A stretch of DNA of 64,000 nucleotides, taken from contig SHXK01000001.1 in assembly GCA_009693335.1 (NCBI GenBank), positions 1,246 to 65,245 of the forward strand, read 5' to 3'. This DNA comes from Betaproteobacteria bacterium. Its GTDB lineage: Bacteria; Pseudomonadota; Gammaproteobacteria; Burkholderiales; SG8-39. The notes beneath the pieces were generated by a model. The model saw only the letters and a program-made list of their open reading frames with translations. It searched no databases and had not been told where the DNA came from. This document shows, in pieces, positions 7,237-55,919 of this stretch. A program made the position numbers and the translations under genes. How positions within the stretch are numbered: the stretch's first letter is position 1; each line of letters begins with the position of its first letter.

Positions 7237-7266
7237 GCACTGTCACGCGTTGGGTGAGGAACGCAC

Positions 7267-8448
7267 TCATGCGTTGAGCCCCCGCGCCAGCTGGCGGTTT
7301 TCCCAGTCGATGCGGATCAGCACCGCGATCGCCACGCAGTTCACGATCAGGCTCGAACCGCCGAAGCTCATCAGCGGCAGGGTCAGTCCCTTGGTGGGCA
7401 GCAGGCCCACGTTGACGCCCATGTTGACGAACGTCTGAAAGCCGATCCAGATGCCGATGCCCTGCGCCAGGAGCGCGGCGAAATTGCGCTCGCGCAGCGC
7501 CGCTTGGCGGCCGATGGCGAAAGCGCGCAGCACGACCCAGACGAACAGCGCGATCACACCCAAAACGCCCAGCAGCCCGAGTTCCTCGGCGATCACCGCC
7601 AGCAGGAAATCGGTGTGCGCCTCGGGCAGGTAGAGCAGCTTCTCGACGCTGGCGCCGAGGCCGACGCCCAGCCATTCGCCGCGGCCAAAAGCGATCAGCG
7701 CGTGCGACAACTGGTAGCCCTTGCCGTAGGCATCGGACCAGGGATCCATGAAGCCGAAGATGCGCTGCATGCGGTATTGCGACGAGAGCACCAGCAGCGC
7801 GAAACCCGTGCCGAGCATCGCCAGCAGTGCGCCGAAGTGCCGGCCGCTCATGCCGCCAAGGAACAGCACGCCGAAGGCGGTCATCGCGACTACCACCAGG
7901 GCGCCGAAATCCGGTTCACACAGCAGCAGCCACGCCACCACCAGCATCACCCCCAGCATCGGCAGCAGCCCCTGGCGGAAATTTTTCAGCACCGCGTGCT
8001 TGCGCACCGTGTAGTCGGCCGCATACAGCACCACCGCCAGTTTCATCAACTCCGAGGGCTGCATGGTGAGCATCCCCAGCTTCAACCAGCGCTGAGCGCC
8101 ATTGACCTCGCGACCGATGCCTGGAATCAGCACCAGCACCAACAGCACCATGCAGGCGGCAAAAAACCACGGCGCGGCTTTCTGCCAGAGGCGCAGCGGC
8201 ACCAGGAACACCGCGGTCGCGGTGCTTAGCGCGAGTACCAGATACAGGCTGTGCCGCAGGAGGAAGTAAGCGGGATTGTGGCCCGAGTTGCGGCCCGCTT
8301 CGGCGCTCGCAATCGACGACGAATACACCATCACCAGCCCGAGCGAGACCAGCAGCAGCGCCGCCCAGGCGAGCGAACGGTCGTATTCCACCGCCGCAGC
8401 GCCGGCGGTTCTCAGCTTGCTGCCTTGTCCAAATACGAAGCTCGCCAT
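7267..8448 (-). CDS. ftsW: Lipid II flippase/peptidoglycan polymerase FtsW (SEDS family)
   Basis: 393-aa polytopic membrane ORF with the C-terminal [14 protein letters not shown] motif. Sits between murD and murG. Confidence 0.93.
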
Positions 8449-16840: not shown

Positions 16841-17299
16841 TCACAGCGAGAAGTCCTCCATGCCCGGAGGCGGCGAACCAGAAACAGACAGCGCGGCGGC
16901 GAGCTTGGCGTTCCAGACGCCAGCATCCCAAAGCTCGAAGTAGTGACCCTGGCCGACCAGCATCGTCTCGCGCTCGAGCTTGGCGTGCAGCCTCAAGCCG
17001 CTCGACACCAGCACCCGGCCCGAGGCGTCGGGGGTGATGTGCTCCTCGAAGCCCAGCAGCAAGCGCTTCCACCAGCTCGCTTGCGGATGAAAACTGGGGA
17101 ATTTCTCGACTTGGGAACGCACACGCTCCCAGGACAATTCCGGATAAATGAGCGCACAACCGTCGGGATGCGCACTCAGCACCAGCGTCTTGCTGGTGGC
17201 CACCAGTGCGTCGCGATGGCGCGTCGGAATCGCCAAACGGCCCTTGGCGTCCAGAGTGATGACCGAAGCGCCGTGGAACGCACTGCCCGTGCTGCCCAT
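16841..17299 (-). CDS. mraZ: Transcriptional regulator MraZ
   Basis: Duplicated SpoVT/AbrB-like MraZ sequence (GASVITLDAKGRLAIPTRHRDAL). Start placed at the first ATG (17299), preceded by GGAGGGGGAGAAG. The track start at 17335 is a TTG 12 codons upstream. Confidence 0.9.
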   Translation of the reverse strand: MGSTGSAFHGASVITLDAKGRLAIPTRHRDALVATSKTLVLSAHPDGCALIYPELSWERVRSQVEKFPSFHPQASWWKRLLLGFEEHITPDASGRVLVSSGLRLHAKLERETMLVGQGHYFELWDAGVWNAKLAAALSVSGSPPPGMEDFSL

Positions 17300-21859: not shown

Positions 21860-22834
21860 ATGAAACGCATCGCCGCATTCGCCGCCACCTTAGTCGTGAC
21901 AGCCCTCGCCAGCGCACAGCCGGCGCAGGCCCAGCAGTACCCGAACAAGCCGATCCGCATCGTCGTGCCCTACGCGGCTGGCGGCACCTCGGACATCCTC
22001 GCCCGGCAGATCGGCCCGAAGCTGACCGAAGCCTGGAGCCAGCCGGTGATCGTGGAGAACCGGCCCGGTGCCAACGGCAATGTCGGCGCCGAGTTCGTCG
22101 CCAAGAGCGCGCCCGACGGCTACACGCTGCTGCTCACTGACTTGGGCGGCCTCGCCATCAGCGCCAGCGTTTACCCGAAACTGCCGTTCAACCCGGCTAA
22201 GGATTTCTCCCCGGTGGTGATGGTTTCGTATTCGCCGCATGTGCTGGCGGTAAATCCGGAGGTGCAGGTGAAGAACGTGCAGGAGTTGATCGCCATGGCC
22301 AAAGCGCACCCCGGCAAGCTCAACTTCGCCATCTCGGGAATCGGCGGCGCGCCGCAGTTGGCGGCCATCGAGTTCGCCCAGCGCACCGGCGTGCAGTGGA
22401 CCTATATTCCGTATAAGGGCGGCTCGGATGCCGTGACCGCCGTGGTAGGCGGCCAGGCGCACGTGCTGTTCAACGGCATGCTCGCCACCTGGCCTTCGGT
22501 CACGGGCGGCAGGCTGAAGGCACTGGCGATCTCCAGCGCGCAGCGTGTGCCCTCGGCAATGGACACCCCGACCGTCGCCGAGCAGGGCCTGTCCGGATTC
22601 GAGACTGGCTCTTTCCAGGGCATCGTCGGCGCTGCCGGCACGCCAAGCGCCACCGTGGCCAAGCTGAACGCCGAGCTGAGCAAAGCATTGAACGCTGCGG
22701 CTATGAAAGAACGTTTTGTGAAACTGGGCACCGAAGTTCGCACCAGCACGCCGGAGAGCCTCGGCGCCTGGATGCAGGCCGAGCAGGCGAAATGGGCCAA
22801 GGTGGTGAAGGAATCCGGCGCCAGGTTCGACTGA
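21860..22834 (+). CDS. Bug/TctC family periplasmic solute-binding protein (tripartite tricarboxylate transporter receptor)
   Basis: 324-aa ORF with a signal peptide (ALASAQPAQA), then YPNKPIRIVVPYAAGGTSD and NRPGANGNVG motifs. Confidence 0.92.
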   Translation: MKRIAAFAATLVVTALASAQPAQAQQYPNKPIRIVVPYAAGGTSDILARQIGPKLTEAWSQPVIVENRPGANGNVGAEFVAKSAPDGYTLLLTDLGGLAISASVYPKLPFNPAKDFSPVVMVSYSPHVLAVNPEVQVKNVQELIAMAKAHPGKLNFAISGIGGAPQLAAIEFAQRTGVQWTYIPYKGGSDAVTAVVGGQAHVLFNGMLATWPSVTGGRLKALAISSAQRVPSAMDTPTVAEQGLSGFETGSFQGIVGAAGTPSATVAKLNAELSKALNAAAMKERFVKLGTEVRTSTPESLGAWMQAEQAKWAKVVKESGARFD

Positions 22835-32651: not shown

Positions 32652-33632
32652 ATGAAAACCGCAAAACTATGGGCTGCACGGCTCATCCTGGCTGGCACAG
32701 CATCCGTGCTGCTCACGCAGGGCGCGTACGCGCAGACCTATCCAACGAAACCGATCCGGCTGGTGATGCCCTACCCCCCGGGCGGCAGCTCCGACATACT
32801 GGCGCGGCCGATCGCCAACGAAATGTCGAAGAGCCTGGGCCAACCGGTCATGATCGAATACAAACCAGGTGCGGGCTCGACCATCGGCGCGGATTTCATC
32901 GCCAAGTCGGCGCCCGACGGCCATACGCTGGTGATGCTGCTGACTGCGCACGCCATCAACGCCACGCTGCTGACTAGCCTGCCCTACGACACGCTGAAGG
33001 ATTTCACTTCCATTACGCTGGCCGCCACGCTGCCGCTGGTGGTGGTGGTGAATGCCCAGTCAAAAATCCACAGCGTGCAAGAGCTGATCGCCGCCGCTAA
33101 AAACAATCCCGGCAAGCTGAACTATGGCTCGGCCGGCACCGGCAATACCAGCCACCTGGCGGTCGAATATTTCAAATCGGTGGTCGGCGTGGACATGGCG
33201 CACGTGCCCTACAAAGGCAGCGGGCCGATGGTTGCCGCGCTGCTGGGGCGCGAGATCGATCTCATGTTCGATAGCCTGTCTTCGTCCCTGGCACAGATCC
33301 AGGCCGGCAAGTTCCGCGCCCTGGGCGTATCGACGGCCAAACGCTCGCACGTAGCGCCGCAAGTGCCGACGATCCAGGAAGCGGGCCTGCCGGGCTTCGA
33401 CATCTCGGTCTGGTACGGGATTTTCGCTGCCGCCAACACGCCAGCGCCCATCGTGCAGAGATTGAACATGGAATTCATCAAGGCCATGGCCGCGCCCGAG
33501 GCCAAGCAGCGGATCGAAGACTACGGCTACCAGATCGTCGGCTCCACGCCCGCGCAGCTCGACGCCCACGTGAAGAGCGAGATCGCCCGCTGGGGCAAGG
33601 TGATCAGGGATTCGGGCGCCAAGGCGAACTGA
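32652..33632 (+). CDS. Bug/TctC family periplasmic solute-binding protein
   Basis: 326-aa ORF with a signal peptide (LTQGAYA), then YPTKPIRLVMPYPPGGSSD and YKPGAGSTIG motifs. Confidence 0.92.
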   Translation: MKTAKLWAARLILAGTASVLLTQGAYAQTYPTKPIRLVMPYPPGGSSDILARPIANEMSKSLGQPVMIEYKPGAGSTIGADFIAKSAPDGHTLVMLLTAHAINATLLTSLPYDTLKDFTSITLAATLPLVVVVNAQSKIHSVQELIAAAKNNPGKLNYGSAGTGNTSHLAVEYFKSVVGVDMAHVPYKGSGPMVAALLGREIDLMFDSLSSSLAQIQAGKFRALGVSTAKRSHVAPQVPTIQEAGLPGFDISVWYGIFAAANTPAPIVQRLNMEFIKAMAAPEAKQRIEDYGYQIVGSTPAQLDAHVKSEIARWGKVIRDSGAKAN

Positions 33633-40110: not shown

Positions 40111-41069
40111 TGCAACGGTTCATTGTTTGCCTTTTTTTAGCGGTGTTTGCAGGGGCAGAGGCACATGCACAAGCCTTCCCATCCCGCCCACTCCGTCTGG
40201 TGGTGGGCTTCGCCCCCGGCGGCGGCGTGGATATCAACGCGCGCCTGCTGGCGCCCAGACTGGCCGAGTACCTGGGCCAGCAGGTGGTGGTGGAGAACAA
40301 GCCCGGCGCCGGCACCAACATCGCCAACGAGTTGGTCGCCAGGAGCCCGGCCGACGGCCATACGCTGCTTATCAACACCGCCGCAGTAGTGATCAACATG
40401 TCGCTGTACCGCAAGCTGCCGTTCGACACCCTGCGCGATTTCGCGCCGGTGTCGGTATTTTCCGAGAGCCCGAACGTGCTGGTGGTAAACGCCAAGCTGC
40501 CGGTCAGCAGCCTGAAAGACCTGATCGAACTGGCGCGCCAGTCGCCCGGCAAGCTGAATTTTTCTTCCGCAGGCGTCGGTACCACCCAGCATCTGTCGGC
40601 CGAGCTGCTCAAGCTGCGCACCAAGACTTTCATCGTGCACATCCCTTATAAGGGCAGCGCGCCCTCGCTCACCGGATTGATCGCAGGCGAAGTGGACCTC
40701 AGCTTCGCCAACATCCCGGCGATCCAGGCGTACGTGAAATCCGGGCGCCTGCGCGCGCTCGCCACCACCGGCTCGAAGCGCGACCCCCAGCTCCCCGAAG
40801 TGCCGACGATGAAAGAAGCGGGCGTCGAGGGGCTCGATGTCACCGTGTGGTACGGCGTGCTGGCACCGGCAGCGACACCGCGCGACATCGTGCAAACCAT
40901 CGCGGCGGCGGTGACGCGAGCGACGCGCGACCCCGACACGCGCAGGCGCATGCTGGAACAAGGCGCCGATCCGATCGGCAGCACACCCGAGGAATTCGGC
41001 AAGCTGCTGCGCGAAGAAATGACGCGCTGGGCAGAGGTGGTGAAGGTTTCCGGCGCAAGCGCCGACTAG
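40110..41069 (+). CDS. Bug/TctC family periplasmic solute-binding protein
   Basis: Start at [21 protein letters not shown] (ATG at 40110, TAATG overlap with the htpG stop). FPSRPLRLVVGFAPGGGVD and NKPGAGTNIA motifs are present. Confidence 0.9.
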   Translation: MQRFIVCLFLAVFAGAEAHAQAFPSRPLRLVVGFAPGGGVDINARLLAPRLAEYLGQQVVVENKPGAGTNIANELVARSPADGHTLLINTAAVVINMSLYRKLPFDTLRDFAPVSVFSESPNVLVVNAKLPVSSLKDLIELARQSPGKLNFSSAGVGTTQHLSAELLKLRTKTFIVHIPYKGSAPSLTGLIAGEVDLSFANIPAIQAYVKSGRLRALATTGSKRDPQLPEVPTMKEAGVEGLDVTVWYGVLAPAATPRDIVQTIAAAVTRATRDPDTRRRMLEQGADPIGSTPEEFGKLLREEMTRWAEVVKVSGASAD

Positions 41070-48439: not shown

Positions 48440-48502
48440 CTAACGCACGGGTGCGTTCCACTAACGCACGGGTGCGTTCCACTAACGCACGGGTGCGTTC
48501 CA
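48440..48502. repeat. Tandem repeat, 3 identical copies of a 21-bp hairpin unit CTAACGCACGGGTGCGTTCCA
   Basis: Read directly: units at 48440-48460, 48461-48481 and 48482-48502. Each contains the inverted repeat AACGCA(C)/(G)TGCGTT. The array lies between the convergent stops at 48390 and 48504. Confidence 0.95.
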
Positions 48503-48503
48503 G

Positions 48504-49454
48504 CTAAAGAACGACCCGGATCGGTTGGCCTGCAGCAAACGCATTGATCGCATCGAAGGCATCGCCGAAGTACTTCTCGAAGCTGGCGCGCTCGACGTAG
48601 CCCAAGTGCGGGGTGGCAGTGACGTTGGGCAGCGAGATCAGCGGATGCGCCGCATCCATCACCGGTTCGTTCTCGAACACGTCCAGCGCCGCCCGCCCCG
48701 GCCGCCCTTCGCGCAGCGCGCGCTCCAGCGCACCGGGCGCGACCAGCTCCGCGCGGCTCACATTCACGAACATCGAGTCCGGACTCATGTTGCGCAGATT
48801 TTCGTATTTGATCAGACCCCTGGTCGCGTCGTTGAGGCGCAACTGCACGCTCACCACATCGCTTTCACTGCACAGCAAATCCAGGCTTGCTACCGTGCGC
48901 AGGCCGGCTTCCTTGGCGCGCGCGATGGTGCTCTCGCGGCCCCACACGCTGACCTGCATCTCGAAGGCCTGCGCGTAGCGGGTGAGACGCTGTGCGATGC
49001 GGCCGTAGCCGACGAAACCGAGCTTCCTGCCCGCCAGCTGGAAACCGACACTCCCCTGCCACAGGCCCTGGCGTAAGCGCTGGTTCTCTTGCGTGATGTT
49101 GCGCGCTGAAGCGAGGATCAAACCCCAGGTGAGTTCCGCGGTGGAGAGCGGGCCGCCGGTGCCGTCGCACACCGTGATGCCGCGCGCCTGGCAGGCCTGC
49201 ACATCCACGTGCGGACCGATTTTCGCGGTCTGCACGATCAGCTTGAGATTGGGAAGTTTCTCAAGGAGTGTTTTCGTCACCCGTGTGCGTTCACGAATGA
49301 GTACCACTGCATCGAAGCCGGCGATGCAGGACGCGATCGTCGCCTCATCGCGCATCGGCACACTGAACACCTCGACCGTGTGCGCGGCAAGCTTGGCAAA
49401 ACAGGCCAGCGCAGGGCTGGCTGGCTGGTAATCCTCCAGGATGGCGACTCGCAT
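48504..49454 (-). CDS. D-isomer-specific 2-hydroxyacid dehydrogenase family protein
   Basis: 316-aa ORF with GFVGYGRIAQRLTRYA as the NAD-binding motif and the C-terminal catalytic segment SRAELV...TPHLGY. Confidence 0.85.
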   Translation of the reverse strand: MRVAILEDYQPASPALACFAKLAAHTVEVFSVPMRDEATIASCIAGFDAVVLIRERTRVTKTLLEKLPNLKLIVQTAKIGPHVDVQACQARGITVCDGTGGPLSTAELTWGLILASARNITQENQRLRQGLWQGSVGFQLAGRKLGFVGYGRIAQRLTRYAQAFEMQVSVWGRESTIARAKEAGLRTVASLDLLCSESDVVSVQLRLNDATRGLIKYENLRNMSPDSMFVNVSRAELVAPGALERALREGRPGRAALDVFENEPVMDAAHPLISLPNVTATPHLGYVERASFEKYFGDAFDAINAFAAGQPIRVVL

Positions 49455-53415: not shown

Positions 53416-54015
53416 ATGAACAAATTCCAGACCCTGACTGCAGTGGCCGCGCCGTTCCCAAAGAAGAACGTCGATACCGACCTCATCATCCGCATCGAGC
53501 GCTGCACCGGCATGCCACGCGAGGAACTTGGCCGCTATGCTTTCGAAATGGCGCGCTACCTGCCCGGCGGCGCCGAGAACCCGGAGTTCGTCCTCAACCA
53601 GCCGCGCTACCGCGGCGCGCAGATCCTTGTCTGCGGCGAATTCTTCGGCACCGGCAGCTCGCGCGAAGTAGCGGTCTGGGCGCTCGCCAGCCTGGGCGTG
53701 CGCTGCCTGATCGCGCCGTCTTTCGGCCAGATCTTTTTCAACAATTGCTTTCAGAACGGCCTCTTGCCGATCACCCTGCCGGCGCCGACCGTAGCGTCGC
53801 TAGCGCAGCGGGCCGCGGCGCCGGATGCCGGACCCTTCACCGTGGATCTGGCAGCGCAGACGATCAACGGCTCGGTGCACTTCGAGATCGCACCGCGCGG
53901 CAAGAAGATGCTGCTCGAAGGCCTGGACGAAATCGCCTTGACCTTGGCGATGGAACCGAAAATTGCCGCTTTCCAGGCCGCCGACCGTCAGCGCCGACCG
54001 TGGATTTACCCGTAA
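53416..54015 (+). CDS. Aconitase-family dehydratase small subunit (LeuD-like)
   Basis: 199-aa ORF starting 1 nt after the large-subunit stop. GEFFGTGSSRE swivel-domain motif. Confidence 0.85.
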   Translation: MNKFQTLTAVAAPFPKKNVDTDLIIRIERCTGMPREELGRYAFEMARYLPGGAENPEFVLNQPRYRGAQILVCGEFFGTGSSREVAVWALASLGVRCLIAPSFGQIFFNNCFQNGLLPITLPAPTVASLAQRAAAPDAGPFTVDLAAQTINGSVHFEIAPRGKKMLLEGLDEIALTLAMEPKIAAFQAADRQRRPWIYP

Positions 54016-54028
54016 GTTTCTGGCTGCC

Positions 54029-55240
54029 TTGAACCTGCCCCTGGAAGACGTGAAGGTGCTGGATCTGAGCCATGCGCTCGCCGGGCCGTTTGGCTCGACC
54101 ATGCTGGCGGATTATGGCGCACAGGTGATCAAGATCGAGCCGCCCGGGCCGGGCGACATCGCGCGCGCCTGGGGCTCGCCGATGCCAGGCGGCGAGACAG
54201 CTTATTTCGTCAGCCTGCACCGCAACAAGAAAGGGATGGTTCTCGATCTGAAGCATGCGCAGGGCAAGGAACTGTTCCTGCGCATGGTGGAACGCTGCGA
54301 CGTGGTGCTGGAGAACTACCGCGTCGGCGCACTGGCGCGGCTCGGGCTGGATTACGAAACCGCGCGCCGGCGCAACCCCGGCATCATCTACTGCTCGATT
54401 TCGGGCTTCGGCCAGGACGGGCCCTACCGCGAGCGCGCCGCGCTGGATCTCATCGTGCAGGCCGAAAGCGGCATGATCGGTGTCACCGGTGAGCCGGGCT
54501 CGGGCGGTACCCGCGCTGGCGTCTCGATCGCCGACCTGGCCGCCGGCATGAATGCGGCGTTCGCGATCCTGCTCGCCCTGCGGGTGAAGGAACGCACGGG
54601 ACTGGGCCAGTCGATCGATGTTTCGATGCTGGAAGGCCAGCTCGCGCTGCTCGGCACCATGATCGGCGATCACCTCGCCAGCGGCGAGATCCCCGCACCG
54701 ATGGGCACCGCCTACAAAGCGCTGCTGCCCTACCAGACCTTCCGCACCCAGACGCGCGACCTGGCGCTGGCGGTTGGCAGCGAGAAGTTGTGGAAGATTT
54801 TCTGCCCGCTGATCGGCTGCCCGGAACTGGCGACCGACGCGCGCTACCTCAGCAACCGTGAGCGCAACGCGAACCGCGCCAGCCTGGTGGCGAAGCTGCA
54901 GGAAGTGTTCCTCACCCGCAGTTACGAGGCCTGGGAAACACTGCTGGTCACCAACGGGATCCCGATTGGCACCGTCAACTCCCTCGCTGAAGTCGTCCGC
55001 CATCCGCAGGTCAAGGCACGAAACGCGCTGGTCGAGATCGACCATCCCAGGGTGGGCAAGGTATCGGTGGTCGGCGTCCCGGCGCGCCTGTCGATGACAC
55101 CGGGCTCGGTGCGCACGCCTTCGCCAACGCTGGGCCAGCACACGGATGAAGTGCTGCGCGACTTACTCGGCCTGGGCCAAGCCGAAATCAACGCGCTGCG
55201 CGCGACAGGCGTCCTCGGGGTCGCAACCGGCGCCTGCTAA
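54029..55240 (+). CDS. CaiB/BaiF family (class III) CoA-transferase
   Basis: LEDVKVLDLSHALAGPFGSTMLADYGAQVIKIE is a typical family III N-terminus. The start is uncertain. The track ORF begins at 53963 inside the LeuD-like gene, and the first plausible start after the LeuD stop is an in-frame TTG at 54029. Confidence 0.82.
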   Translation: MNLPLEDVKVLDLSHALAGPFGSTMLADYGAQVIKIEPPGPGDIARAWGSPMPGGETAYFVSLHRNKKGMVLDLKHAQGKELFLRMVERCDVVLENYRVGALARLGLDYETARRRNPGIIYCSISGFGQDGPYRERAALDLIVQAESGMIGVTGEPGSGGTRAGVSIADLAAGMNAAFAILLALRVKERTGLGQSIDVSMLEGQLALLGTMIGDHLASGEIPAPMGTAYKALLPYQTFRTQTRDLALAVGSEKLWKIFCPLIGCPELATDARYLSNRERNANRASLVAKLQEVFLTRSYEAWETLLVTNGIPIGTVNSLAEVVRHPQVKARNALVEIDHPRVGKVSVVGVPARLSMTPGSVRTPSPTLGQHTDEVLRDLLGLGQAEINALRATGVLGVATGAC

Positions 55241-55352
55241 CGCACGAGTGCGTTCCTGCCAACGCATGAGTGCGTTCCTGCCAACGCATGAGTGCGTTCC
55301 TGCCAACGCACGAGTGCGTTCCTGCTAACGCACGAGTGCGTTCCTGCTAACA
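55235..55352. repeat. Tandem repeat, 5 full copies plus a partial copy of a 22-bp hairpin unit CTGC[T/C]AACGCA[C/T]GAGTGCGTTC
   Basis: Read directly: units start at 55235, 55257, 55279, 55301 and 55323, with a partial unit at 55345-55352. The core is related to the 48440-48502 repeat. The array fills the gap between the convergent stops at 55240 and 55359. Confidence 0.95.
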
Positions 55353-55358
55353 GCGTCG

Positions 55359-55919
55359 CTACCTGACCCGGTAGATCTCCGTCGGGAAGTTGCCGAGCGA
55401 CACCTCCAGGCTGGCGCGCTTTTTTTCCAGCTGCGCGGTGAGAATAGCGCGCTCGGCGCCCTTCTCCCAGCGCATCTTCAACACCTGGCGGTCTTTGCTG
55501 TCGCGGCGCGCGATGACCTCAGTCGCCTCGGCGAGTGGCGCTCCCCAGCGGGACTTGAGATGGGCTTGCAAGCGCCCCAGATCCTTCACGTCAAAGCGCA
55601 GGTCGTAGGCCTGGACCGCATCCGCCTTCAGGTACACCGTGATGCGCGTCTCGACGCCACCCACTGAGACGCGGGCGTCGTCGCAGCGCCGGTCCGCGGC
55701 AGCGGACTGCCATTCCAGCGCCTTGCAGCGCGCGCTGGGCATGGCTTTTTTCACCTCGATCTCCCTGCCGCCCAACTTGATGCCGTTGATGTCGTAAGCG
55801 AGCGCCGGGAAAGCCGCGACGCAGATCCACGCGAGGACGAATTTCTTCAATGACCTCAACGCTACCAGCCAGCCGCTGCGCCGTTTCAGAGCCTCGTATT
55901 TGCCGATGTGCGCGTCCAT
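55359..55919 (-). CDS. Hypothetical secreted protein
   Basis: 186-aa ORF with an internal signal-peptide-like segment (KKFVLAWICVAAFPALA-YD) and GC3-rich codons. The start is uncertain (ATG at 55919, or the TTG just before KKFVLAW). No family recognised. Confidence 0.55.
   Translation of the reverse strand: MDAHIGKYEALKRRSGWLVALRSLKKFVLAWICVAAFPALAYDINGIKLGGREIEVKKAMPSARCKALEWQSAAADRRCDDARVSVGGVETRITVYLKADAVQAYDLRFDVKDLGRLQAHLKSRWGAPLAEATEVIARRDSKDRQVLKMRWEKGAERAILTAQLEKKRASLEVSLGNFPTEIYRVR

Follow-up and report, generated by a model that had tools for sequence, protein, structure and literature searches.

How did a string of small, nearly identical hairpins come to lie between two convergent genes of an uncultured betaproteobacterium, and what kind of repeat do they represent? 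The locus is found in a stretch of 64,000 nucleotides (Betaproteobacteria bacterium, GenBank assembly GCA_009693335.1, contig SHXK01000001.1, positions 1,246 to 65,245 of the forward strand), referred to below as the window, in which a gene for a CaiB-like CoA-transferase and a hypothetical gene converge on a gap of 118 nt, taken up in all except its last 7 nt by tandem copies of a 22-bp palindromic unit. The best reading is that the unit belongs to a previously undescribed family of dispersed palindromes, similar to repetitive extragenic palindromic (REP) sequences, which reaches far beyond the window and had been overlooked by the first-pass annotation of this DNA. The array itself is probably the product of a local head-to-tail expansion, by slippage, of one such very small REP-like element into a variable-number repeat.

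Five full copies of the unit (C)TGC[T/C]-AACGCA[C/T]-GA-GTGCGTT-CC, written through as (C)TGC[T/C]AACGCA[C/T]GAGTGCGTTC, all on the + strand, and part of a sixth make up the array:

55234..55351, + strand: head-to-tail array, 5.4 units of 22 bp (Tandem Repeats Finder, direct reading, covariance model)
55239..55256, + strand: core of unit 1, AACGCACGAGTGCGTTCC, preceded by CT, so that CTAA gives a TAA stop
55261..55278, + strand: core of unit 2, AACGCATGAGTGCGTTCC, with a T.G wobble as seventh pair and the linker CCTGCC
55283..55300, + strand: core of unit 3, identical to unit 2
55305..55322, + strand: core of unit 4, AACGCACGAGTGCGTTCC, a hybrid that starts with CCAA like units 2-3 and has the loop CGAG found in units 1 and 5
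55327..55344, + strand: core of unit 5, identical to unit 1, CTAA start included
55345..55351, + strand: partial sixth unit TGCTAAC, leaving the array with a terminal CTAA

Tandem Repeats Finder calls the interval 55233-55351 with a period of 22, 5.4 copies, 95% matches, 0 indels and a score of 203, and the families D1 and D2 of the repeat search cover the array at 55234..55351. The units score 33-37 bits on the + strand and 10-15 bits on the - strand with a covariance model. The stem AACGCA/TGCGTT and the CC following it are unchanged in all 8 full copies of this and a second array, as in a ninth, single copy at 7258-7275, and the units of the window differ only in the base that closes the loop (C/T), in one base of the loop (G/A) and in the linker. 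Much of this had been recorded in the first-pass annotation, which described a 22-bp unit in 5.4 copies, a stem invariant in eight full copies at two loci, variation restricted to loop-closing base, loop and linker, one variant in the outer units (1 and 5) and another in the inner units (2 and 3), a TAA at 55238-55240 ending the CaiB-like gene within unit 1, and a minus-strand stop from 55359. Tandem Repeats Finder agrees on period and copy number, the open reading frames confirm both stops, direct reading finds the same distribution of changes, with units 1 and 5 and units 2 and 3 pairwise identical and unit 4 a hybrid, and the ninth copy carries the same stem. Two details are amended. The units (CTGC[T/C]AACGCA...) start at 55234, 55256, 55278, 55300 and 55322, the partial sixth extending to 55351, each start having been placed one base late; and the array, thought to fill the whole gap, leaves its last 7 nt free, the gap length of 118 bp being correct.

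Two more loci of the unit are present in the window:

48440..48507, + strand: sister array, 3.2 units of 21 bp (CTAACGCACGGGTGCGTTCCA), called by Tandem Repeats Finder
7258..7275, - strand: single unit at the ftsW-murG junction of a cell-division gene cluster, with the ftsW TGA stop in the loop of the unit

The sister array (locus 1, the array at 55234..55351 being locus 2) separates a glyoxalase-like gene from a convergent 2-hydroxyacid dehydrogenase gene, and the latter, encoded on the minus strand, takes its TAG stop from CTAA, the partial unit that ends the array. The unit at 7258-7275, the ninth of the window, had been overlooked. An identical 18-mer resides at the same junction (2878-2895) in L018, a metagenome-assembled genome (MAG) contig only 80% identical overall (L-numbers denote fetched contigs or loci); the intergenic bases right after the unit show an indel between the two DNAs. 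The array is confirmed as a real, non-random feature. The pattern AACGCA-N3-6-TGCGTT has 9 matches in the 64-kb window against 0.01 expected, the 18-mer with up to 2 mismatches finds these 9 units alone against 0.76 expected, and the covariance model assigns them 21.7-37.7 bits, the next match in the window scoring 10.8 bits. Decayed relics of the unit were found in the window neither by the 2-mismatch search nor by an unfiltered covariance-model search. The idea of a DNA uptake sequence was tried and rejected, the half-site GTGCGTTCC occurring only 3 times outside the units in 64 kb, always in coding DNA. Isolated half-sites GGAACGCAC lie in coding DNA at 17114, 17275 and 54589, the first two 161 nt apart, and are probably due to chance.

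Copies beyond the window were monitored by a single-unit pattern in one genome per species and by a two-unit pattern in metagenomes; all counts outside the window refer to the matches listed. The 18-nt core, AACGCAC-NN-GTGCGTT-CC, was found singly or in head-to-tail runs of 2-6 units at no fewer than about 50 unrelated gene ends, in metagenomes and in uncultured MAGs labeled Betaproteobacteria, Burkholderiales or Nitrosomonadales. The two-unit scan of metagenomes yielded 27 contigs with arrays of 2-6 units, and the deduplicated set includes at least 16 single units and at least 30 arrays. The period of the arrays is 21 bp in 16, 22 in 7, 20 in 3, 23 in 2 and 24 in 1, one more array mixing 21 and 24. 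Linker subtypes recur at unrelated loci (CCACC at 7, CCACT at 5, CCTGC[C/T] at the array 55234..55351 and at L106, which has different flanks), which means that copying involves not the hairpin alone but the entire unit of about 21-22 nt. Such a dispersed unit features a perfect 7-bp stem (AACGCAC/GTGCGTT), a 2-nt center, a 3' CC(A/T) tail and a linker often ending in CTAA. The nearest relatives of the window that were fetched are about 80-82% identical in DNA. Among the matches listed, those of the single-unit genome scan are mostly chance or coding matches, as with AACGCATGGGTGCGTTCCTG, a conserved coding motif common to many Proteobacteria.

Neither the PLSDB plasmid collection, which holds no match to the unit, nor the viral contigs of IMG/VR, from which the two-unit pattern is absent, support an origin from plasmids or phages. 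A text search covering about 8 million papers found the 16-mers of the unit in none of them, and its 9-mers only in unrelated eukaryotic, viral and materials-science papers; no matching sequences are present in the supplements of PMC3733652. Rfam has no match in the window at gathering thresholds, and around the array, at E up to 10, only a spurious 9.5-bit match to EBER2. A diverged subfamily with A-T as seventh pair (AACGCAA-AC-TTGCGTT) is represented by the arrays L101 and L124 and by L120 (7084-7124); a CGTC tag precedes the first unit in L101 and L124, and L120 derives from a contig of much lower GC content.

The searches left the four central bases free, and the outer two of these form a seventh stem pair in 79 of 80 distinct units (CG 70, UG 4, AU 4, UA 1), and covariation is evident, 5 cells being changed on both sides against 0.3 in shuffles. 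The T.G of units 2-3 and the T-A found in L106, which is of the same linker subtype, look like steps of a compensation path.

Most elements lie at the 3' ends of genes. Both neighbors were classified at 35 sites, of which 33 touch a gene 3' end; 14 follow a gene in its own orientation and precede the next gene, 8 are found in the same setting in the opposite orientation, 11 lie between convergent genes, and the remaining 2 between divergent genes. The unit often donates the TAA stop of the upstream gene, a habit that the first-pass annotation had missed: a TAA made up by a T and the first AA of the stem is the upstream stop in about 18 of the 28 cases with an upstream gene end, whereas TAA accounts for 8 of 41 stops (20%) in the window. 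On the other side, the TAG of the convergent gene usually comes 1-6 nt after the CC tail and corresponds to the CTA of a terminal partial unit. The motif (C)TA(A/G) is present at both ends of the element in about half of the loci, single units included.

The array at 55234..55351 conforms to this pattern, as indicated by the features which flank it:

54029..55240, + strand: CoA-transferase family III (CaiB-like), 403 amino acids (Pfam PF02515, E 2e-128; ENA gene calls)
55238..55240, + strand: in-frame TAA stop of the CoA-transferase, composed of T and the first AA of the unit 1 stem
55359..55919, - strand: convergent hypothetical gene, 186 amino acids, with a signal-peptide-like N-terminus (GenBank protein MSQ87700.1)

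The TAG stop of the 186-residue gene (55359-55361) is 7 nt beyond the array. Changes in copy number cannot alter either flanking protein, because both stops are located at or outside the array edges. The CoA-transferase start is ambiguous, since a TTG at 53963 would give 425 residues and an overlap with the upstream LeuD-like gene, and the ENA calls use 54029; neither start is ATG.

The history of the locus may be followed in two relatives. The MAG contig JBDTRO010000191 (L127) is 81-83% identical to the window, in an alignment that breaks off at 55219 and resumes at 55358; in between, the CoA-transferase is closed by its own TAG directly after ...VLG, 6 codons earlier, and an unrelated spacer of 38 nt follows. 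Compared with L127, the window gene has lost the native stop, gained six extra codons (VATGAC) and ends in frame at the TAA of unit 1. On the evidence of this alignment, a unit copy has replaced both the original 38-nt spacer and the native CoA-transferase stop. In a relative from ENA ERZ1305449, the protein of which is 91% identical, the genes for the CoA-transferase (416 residues) and for a convergent protein of 185 residues overlap by 8 nt and leave no gap (zdhLKftn, ekSRVe_u). This arrangement may resemble the state before the repeat arrived. The own TAG and unrelated spacer in L127 and the overlapping genes in the 91% relative mark the array as a lineage-specific insertion.

Once present, the units vary in number. 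Gaps at locus 2 measure 140, 162 (twice), 184 and 206 nt in ERZ1305449 contigs encoding identical flanking proteins, and 118 nt in the window, an exact succession of 22-nt steps; gaps at locus 1 measure 92 or 113 nt among contigs encoding identical proteins, a single 21-nt step. That these steps represent copy-number alleles is suggested by gap lengths, not by DNA sequence. At another locus of the family, the difference is seen in the DNA itself: of L118 and L119, which share 99.6% identity across 6.5 kb, the former has 3 units and the latter 2. Near-identical genomes thus differ in unit number in DNA at L118/L119, and by gap lengths only at the array locus. The latter now seems to behave as a variable-number tandem repeat, its size in the population ranging from about 5 to 9 units. 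In L106, L109 and L116, orthologous arrays with flanks 81-83% identical, linkers and periods differ from one array to the next and are uniform within each, as would be expected if arrays contract and re-expand repeatedly. Unlike arrays, single units are stable when located at operon junctions, the ftsW-murG unit being unchanged in L018 in spite of 20% divergence. Another stable single copy of this kind was noticed in three MAGs, in which one unit follows a TGA stop by 5 nt at the same gene junction (L015 6878-6895, L016 4966-4983, L067 4834-4851); L015 and L016 are 81-83% identical there.

These data also support, in part, what the first-pass annotation had proposed on the origin of the array. 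Slippage, then one of the options, is supported by the 22-bp steps (21-bp at locus 1) and by the unit that separates L118 from L119; conservation of the stem beyond recent copying is corroborated by the presence of the core at dozens of loci that are unrelated, and in genomes that have diverged by about 20%. A palindrome-binding protein, the remaining option, is an unlikely candidate, considered further below. The comparison of orthologous gaps it recommended found the array absent from L127 and from the 91% relative. It had named unrelated sequence in the gap of relatives, together with a lack of other copies, as speaking against a repeat family: the former is what relatives show, and other copies exist at dozens of loci.

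Among known systems, the tagged REP families of PMC3733652 come nearest to the unit in architecture. REPs are concentrated at the ends of genes, are able to provide stop codons and in many cases have a CCA tail (PMC3733652), and when located in 3' untranslated regions have been proposed to act as combined terminator and stabilizer (bioRxiv 10.64898/2026.03.23.713779). They have been sorted into CGTC-tagged and GTAG-tagged super-families (Di Nocera et al. 2013), the Neisseria dRS3 element corresponding to CGTC-1 (PMC3733652). Members of CGTC families have stems of 8-9 bp, starting with two A/T pairs, and loops of 4-5 nt; among tagged REPs head-to-head dimers predominate and head-to-tail ones are absent or rare, some families forming large tandem clusters (PMC3733652). 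The broad features of REPs are all found here, the unit being a short extragenic palindrome in many dispersed copies, with the 16-nt palindrome at 3 loci in 64 kb and about 50 elsewhere (loci, not copies per genome). Like tagged REPs, the elements are small, sit at gene ends, can supply stops to flanking open reading frames, and have a stem that opens with AA/TT. A CCA-type tail is shared with the CGTC-tagged families: of 92 units, 52 have A and 29 have T as the base after CC, which was left free in the searches. Unlike those families, positions -4 to -1 read C-R-C-Y, CGTC being found only in L101 and L124 and CCTC only in L060 and L109; the stem measures 7 bp around a 2-nt center, against 8-9 bp and loops of 4-5 nt; arrays are exclusively head-to-tail, and the hosts are uncultured Betaproteobacteria.

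Abundant short extragenic palindromes and higher-order clusters are equally typical of REPs mobilized by REP-associated tyrosine transposases (RAYTs), of REPINs, and of the bacterial interspersed mosaic elements (BIMEs) of E. coli (Nunvar 2010, PMC2817692; Bertels and Rainey 2011, PMC3116915). In P. fluorescens SBW25, too, REPs occur as direct tandem arrays with even spacing. The units of BIMEs alternate in orientation, while all those described here are direct, and the 18-nt core is shorter than RAYT-type REPs. To our knowledge, no RAYT gene has been described in these hosts. In behavior the elements resemble the mycobacterial interspersed repetitive units (MIRUs), an intergenic family with members at many loci, copy numbers varying among strains, and contacts or overlaps with flanking stops. 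MIRUs are about 40-100 bp long, are not simple perfect hairpins, and lie mostly inside operons, oriented with transcription; the present units are palindromes of 20-24 bp, often located between convergent genes. Bor repeats of Bordetella, 26-30 bp long and similar to the E. coli REP z1, are also short stem-loop sequences found near coding regions in Betaproteobacteria (Petrillo et al. 2006, PMC1590033), a likeness drawn by description, not from consensus sequences. [quoted passage not shown]

As the probable course of events, a copy of the REP-like unit would have arrived at the 3' end of the CoA-transferase gene, its TAA becoming the stop, and would then have increased in number on the spot through replication slippage or unequal recombination, to which hairpin formation would have contributed. 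The unit being palindromic, transcripts of both convergent genes would carry a string of small hairpins at their 3' ends. If E. coli REPs are a guide, such hairpins may hinder 3' exonucleases or reduce read-through from one gene into the other.

Several observations weigh against this interpretation, some of them on the side of RNA folding. Single hairpins reach -5.5 to -7.6 kcal/mol as RNA, no better than shuffled sequences (z -0.4 to -1.3), and a 7-bp stem closed by 2 nt is awkward for RNA. No U-tract follows the hairpins, each being followed by CCTGC, and a terminator scan flags no site in the array. Others concern kinship with REPs and movement. A GTAG/GTGG head is absent from both flanks of 92 distinct units (5' C-R-C-[T/C], 3' CC[A/T]); no inverted pairs were found among about 50 loci, all multi-unit loci being same-strand; orientation relative to transcription is weakly biased, with about 12 independent sites in sense and 6 in antisense orientation, counted by hand, where both flanking genes run the same way; and no transposase or other mobilizing gene turned up in the 64-kb window and in fragments of 2-15 kb, the open reading frames of the window not having been screened for Y1 transposases. 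The remainder concern the data themselves: the search patterns fixed the six outer stem pairs and the CC, the invariance of which at outside loci is thus imposed; reading frames at outside sites were chosen by GC content at the three codon positions (GC3 > GC1 > GC2), a heuristic, not annotation; and the differing gap lengths in ERZ1305449 could reflect mis-assembly of the repeat.

Single hairpins have z scores of -1.8 to -2.9 as DNA. ViennaRNA draws the unit with a 6-bp stem and a 4-nt loop. The whole + strand array folds at -63.3 kcal/mol (z -5.3), either as separate hairpins or as one long nested hairpin, and the fold of the minus-strand array is not significant (z -0.96). Exceptional stability of the hairpins was considered and discarded, single units being no more stable than shuffled ones.

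Arrays could alternatively represent phased binding sites for a dimeric DNA-binding protein, such as a nucleoid-associated or topology factor, the units being 7-2-7 palindromes recognized in double-stranded form, not hairpins. Precedents are gyrase and IHF, both of which bind the BIMEs of E. coli. What is kept is the sequence of the stem and not only its pairing, all 9 window units being exact and without decayed copies around them; a 2-bp center is more in keeping with a symmetric operator than with an RNA loop; periods are concentrated at 21-22 bp, close to two turns of the helix, which would place the sites on one face; and the symmetric A...T variant in L101, L120 and L124 could reflect a protein with altered specificity. 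Such a role seems unlikely, because the sites are at gene 3' ends, overlapping stops, and not at promoters, singles and arrays of any length occur, and periods of 20, 23 and 24 bp are found as well. Furthermore, the T.G wobble here and the T-A in L106 fit stepwise compensation of a hairpin, no candidate protein is known, and stem invariance at other loci is imposed by the search patterns. Equally doubtful is a broader proposition, according to which either the unit is a self-propagating element copied by a dedicated enzyme onto stops at CTAA/CTAG, or the arrays are phased docking platforms for a protein that recognizes the 7-2-7 palindrome.

According to a different explanation, which we consider quite unlikely, the units are bidirectional terminators or protectors of RNA 3' ends, kept by selection site by site and not members of a spreading family. 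Their location at gene ends, with enrichment between convergent genes, the folding of the palindrome on both strands, and the + strand array fold mentioned above are all as such a function would have it. Independent selection would not give the same 18-21 nt sequence, and the same linker subtypes, at dozens of loci. Intrinsic (Rho-independent) termination was rejected, no U-tract being present, neither single hairpins nor the minus-strand array fold better than expected, and at this gap close relatives lack the array, the copy number being free to vary.

A minimal transposon-like element would insert at YTAR (CTAA/CTAG) with duplication of the target, moved in trans by an IS5-like or IS630-like transposase or another enzyme, and arrays would grow by insertion into the duplicated CTAA. 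The flanking (C)TA(A/G), found in about half of the loci, singles included, would fit target duplications; CTAA has a stop codon on both strands, which would explain placement on stops in a 64% GC genome, and presence or absence of the element differs between relatives. This is a very improbable account all the same. Many internal linkers are devoid of TA (e.g. CCACC-AAC), which slippage explains and self-insertion does not, as the step of exactly one unit between near-identical strains fits slippage; the two TAs are not placed symmetrically around the palindrome, the element has no linked transposase, and for transposition of something of about 20 nt these families offer no precedent. That the array is an assembly artefact or a purely local product of recent slippage is largely refuted: the window derives from a MAG (locus tags EXR32_), short-read assemblers can mis-size 22-bp repeats and unitigs do break inside the array, but unitigs obtained in three independent runs (L001-L003) are 99.9-100% identical to the last unit plus right flank, so that the repeat is real, its exact copy number in this assembly being less certain, the family is found in many independent assemblies and genera, and the single ftsW-murG copy is conserved across 20% divergence.

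Elsewhere in the window, three paralogous gene copies (22083-22832, 32884-33630 and 40321-41067), 10.8 and 7.4 kb apart, share stretches which are 73-82% identical. They probably encode periplasmic binding proteins of the TctC/Bug type, because a TctC gene is called next to locus 1 in ENA contigs.

If the unit did propagate by itself, it would be among the smallest elements known to do so, and would donate a new TAA to each gene hit; on either the self-propagation or the docking reading, this betaproteobacterial clade would possess a new system of mobilization or recognition, distinct from RAYT-REP. With expansion of a REP-like unit by slippage as the probable explanation, the general understanding of REP-type repeats is unchanged. 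To it is added an undescribed REP-like family from uncultured Betaproteobacteria of soil and groundwater type, a group whose elements of this kind are barely charted. The family is unusual, for specialists, in its 18-nt core, strictly head-to-tail order, period of 21-22 bp and routine replacement of stops by its own TAA. The arrays break short-read assemblies and can shift annotated gene ends, as with the six codons added here, and could serve as strain-typing markers in metagenomes.

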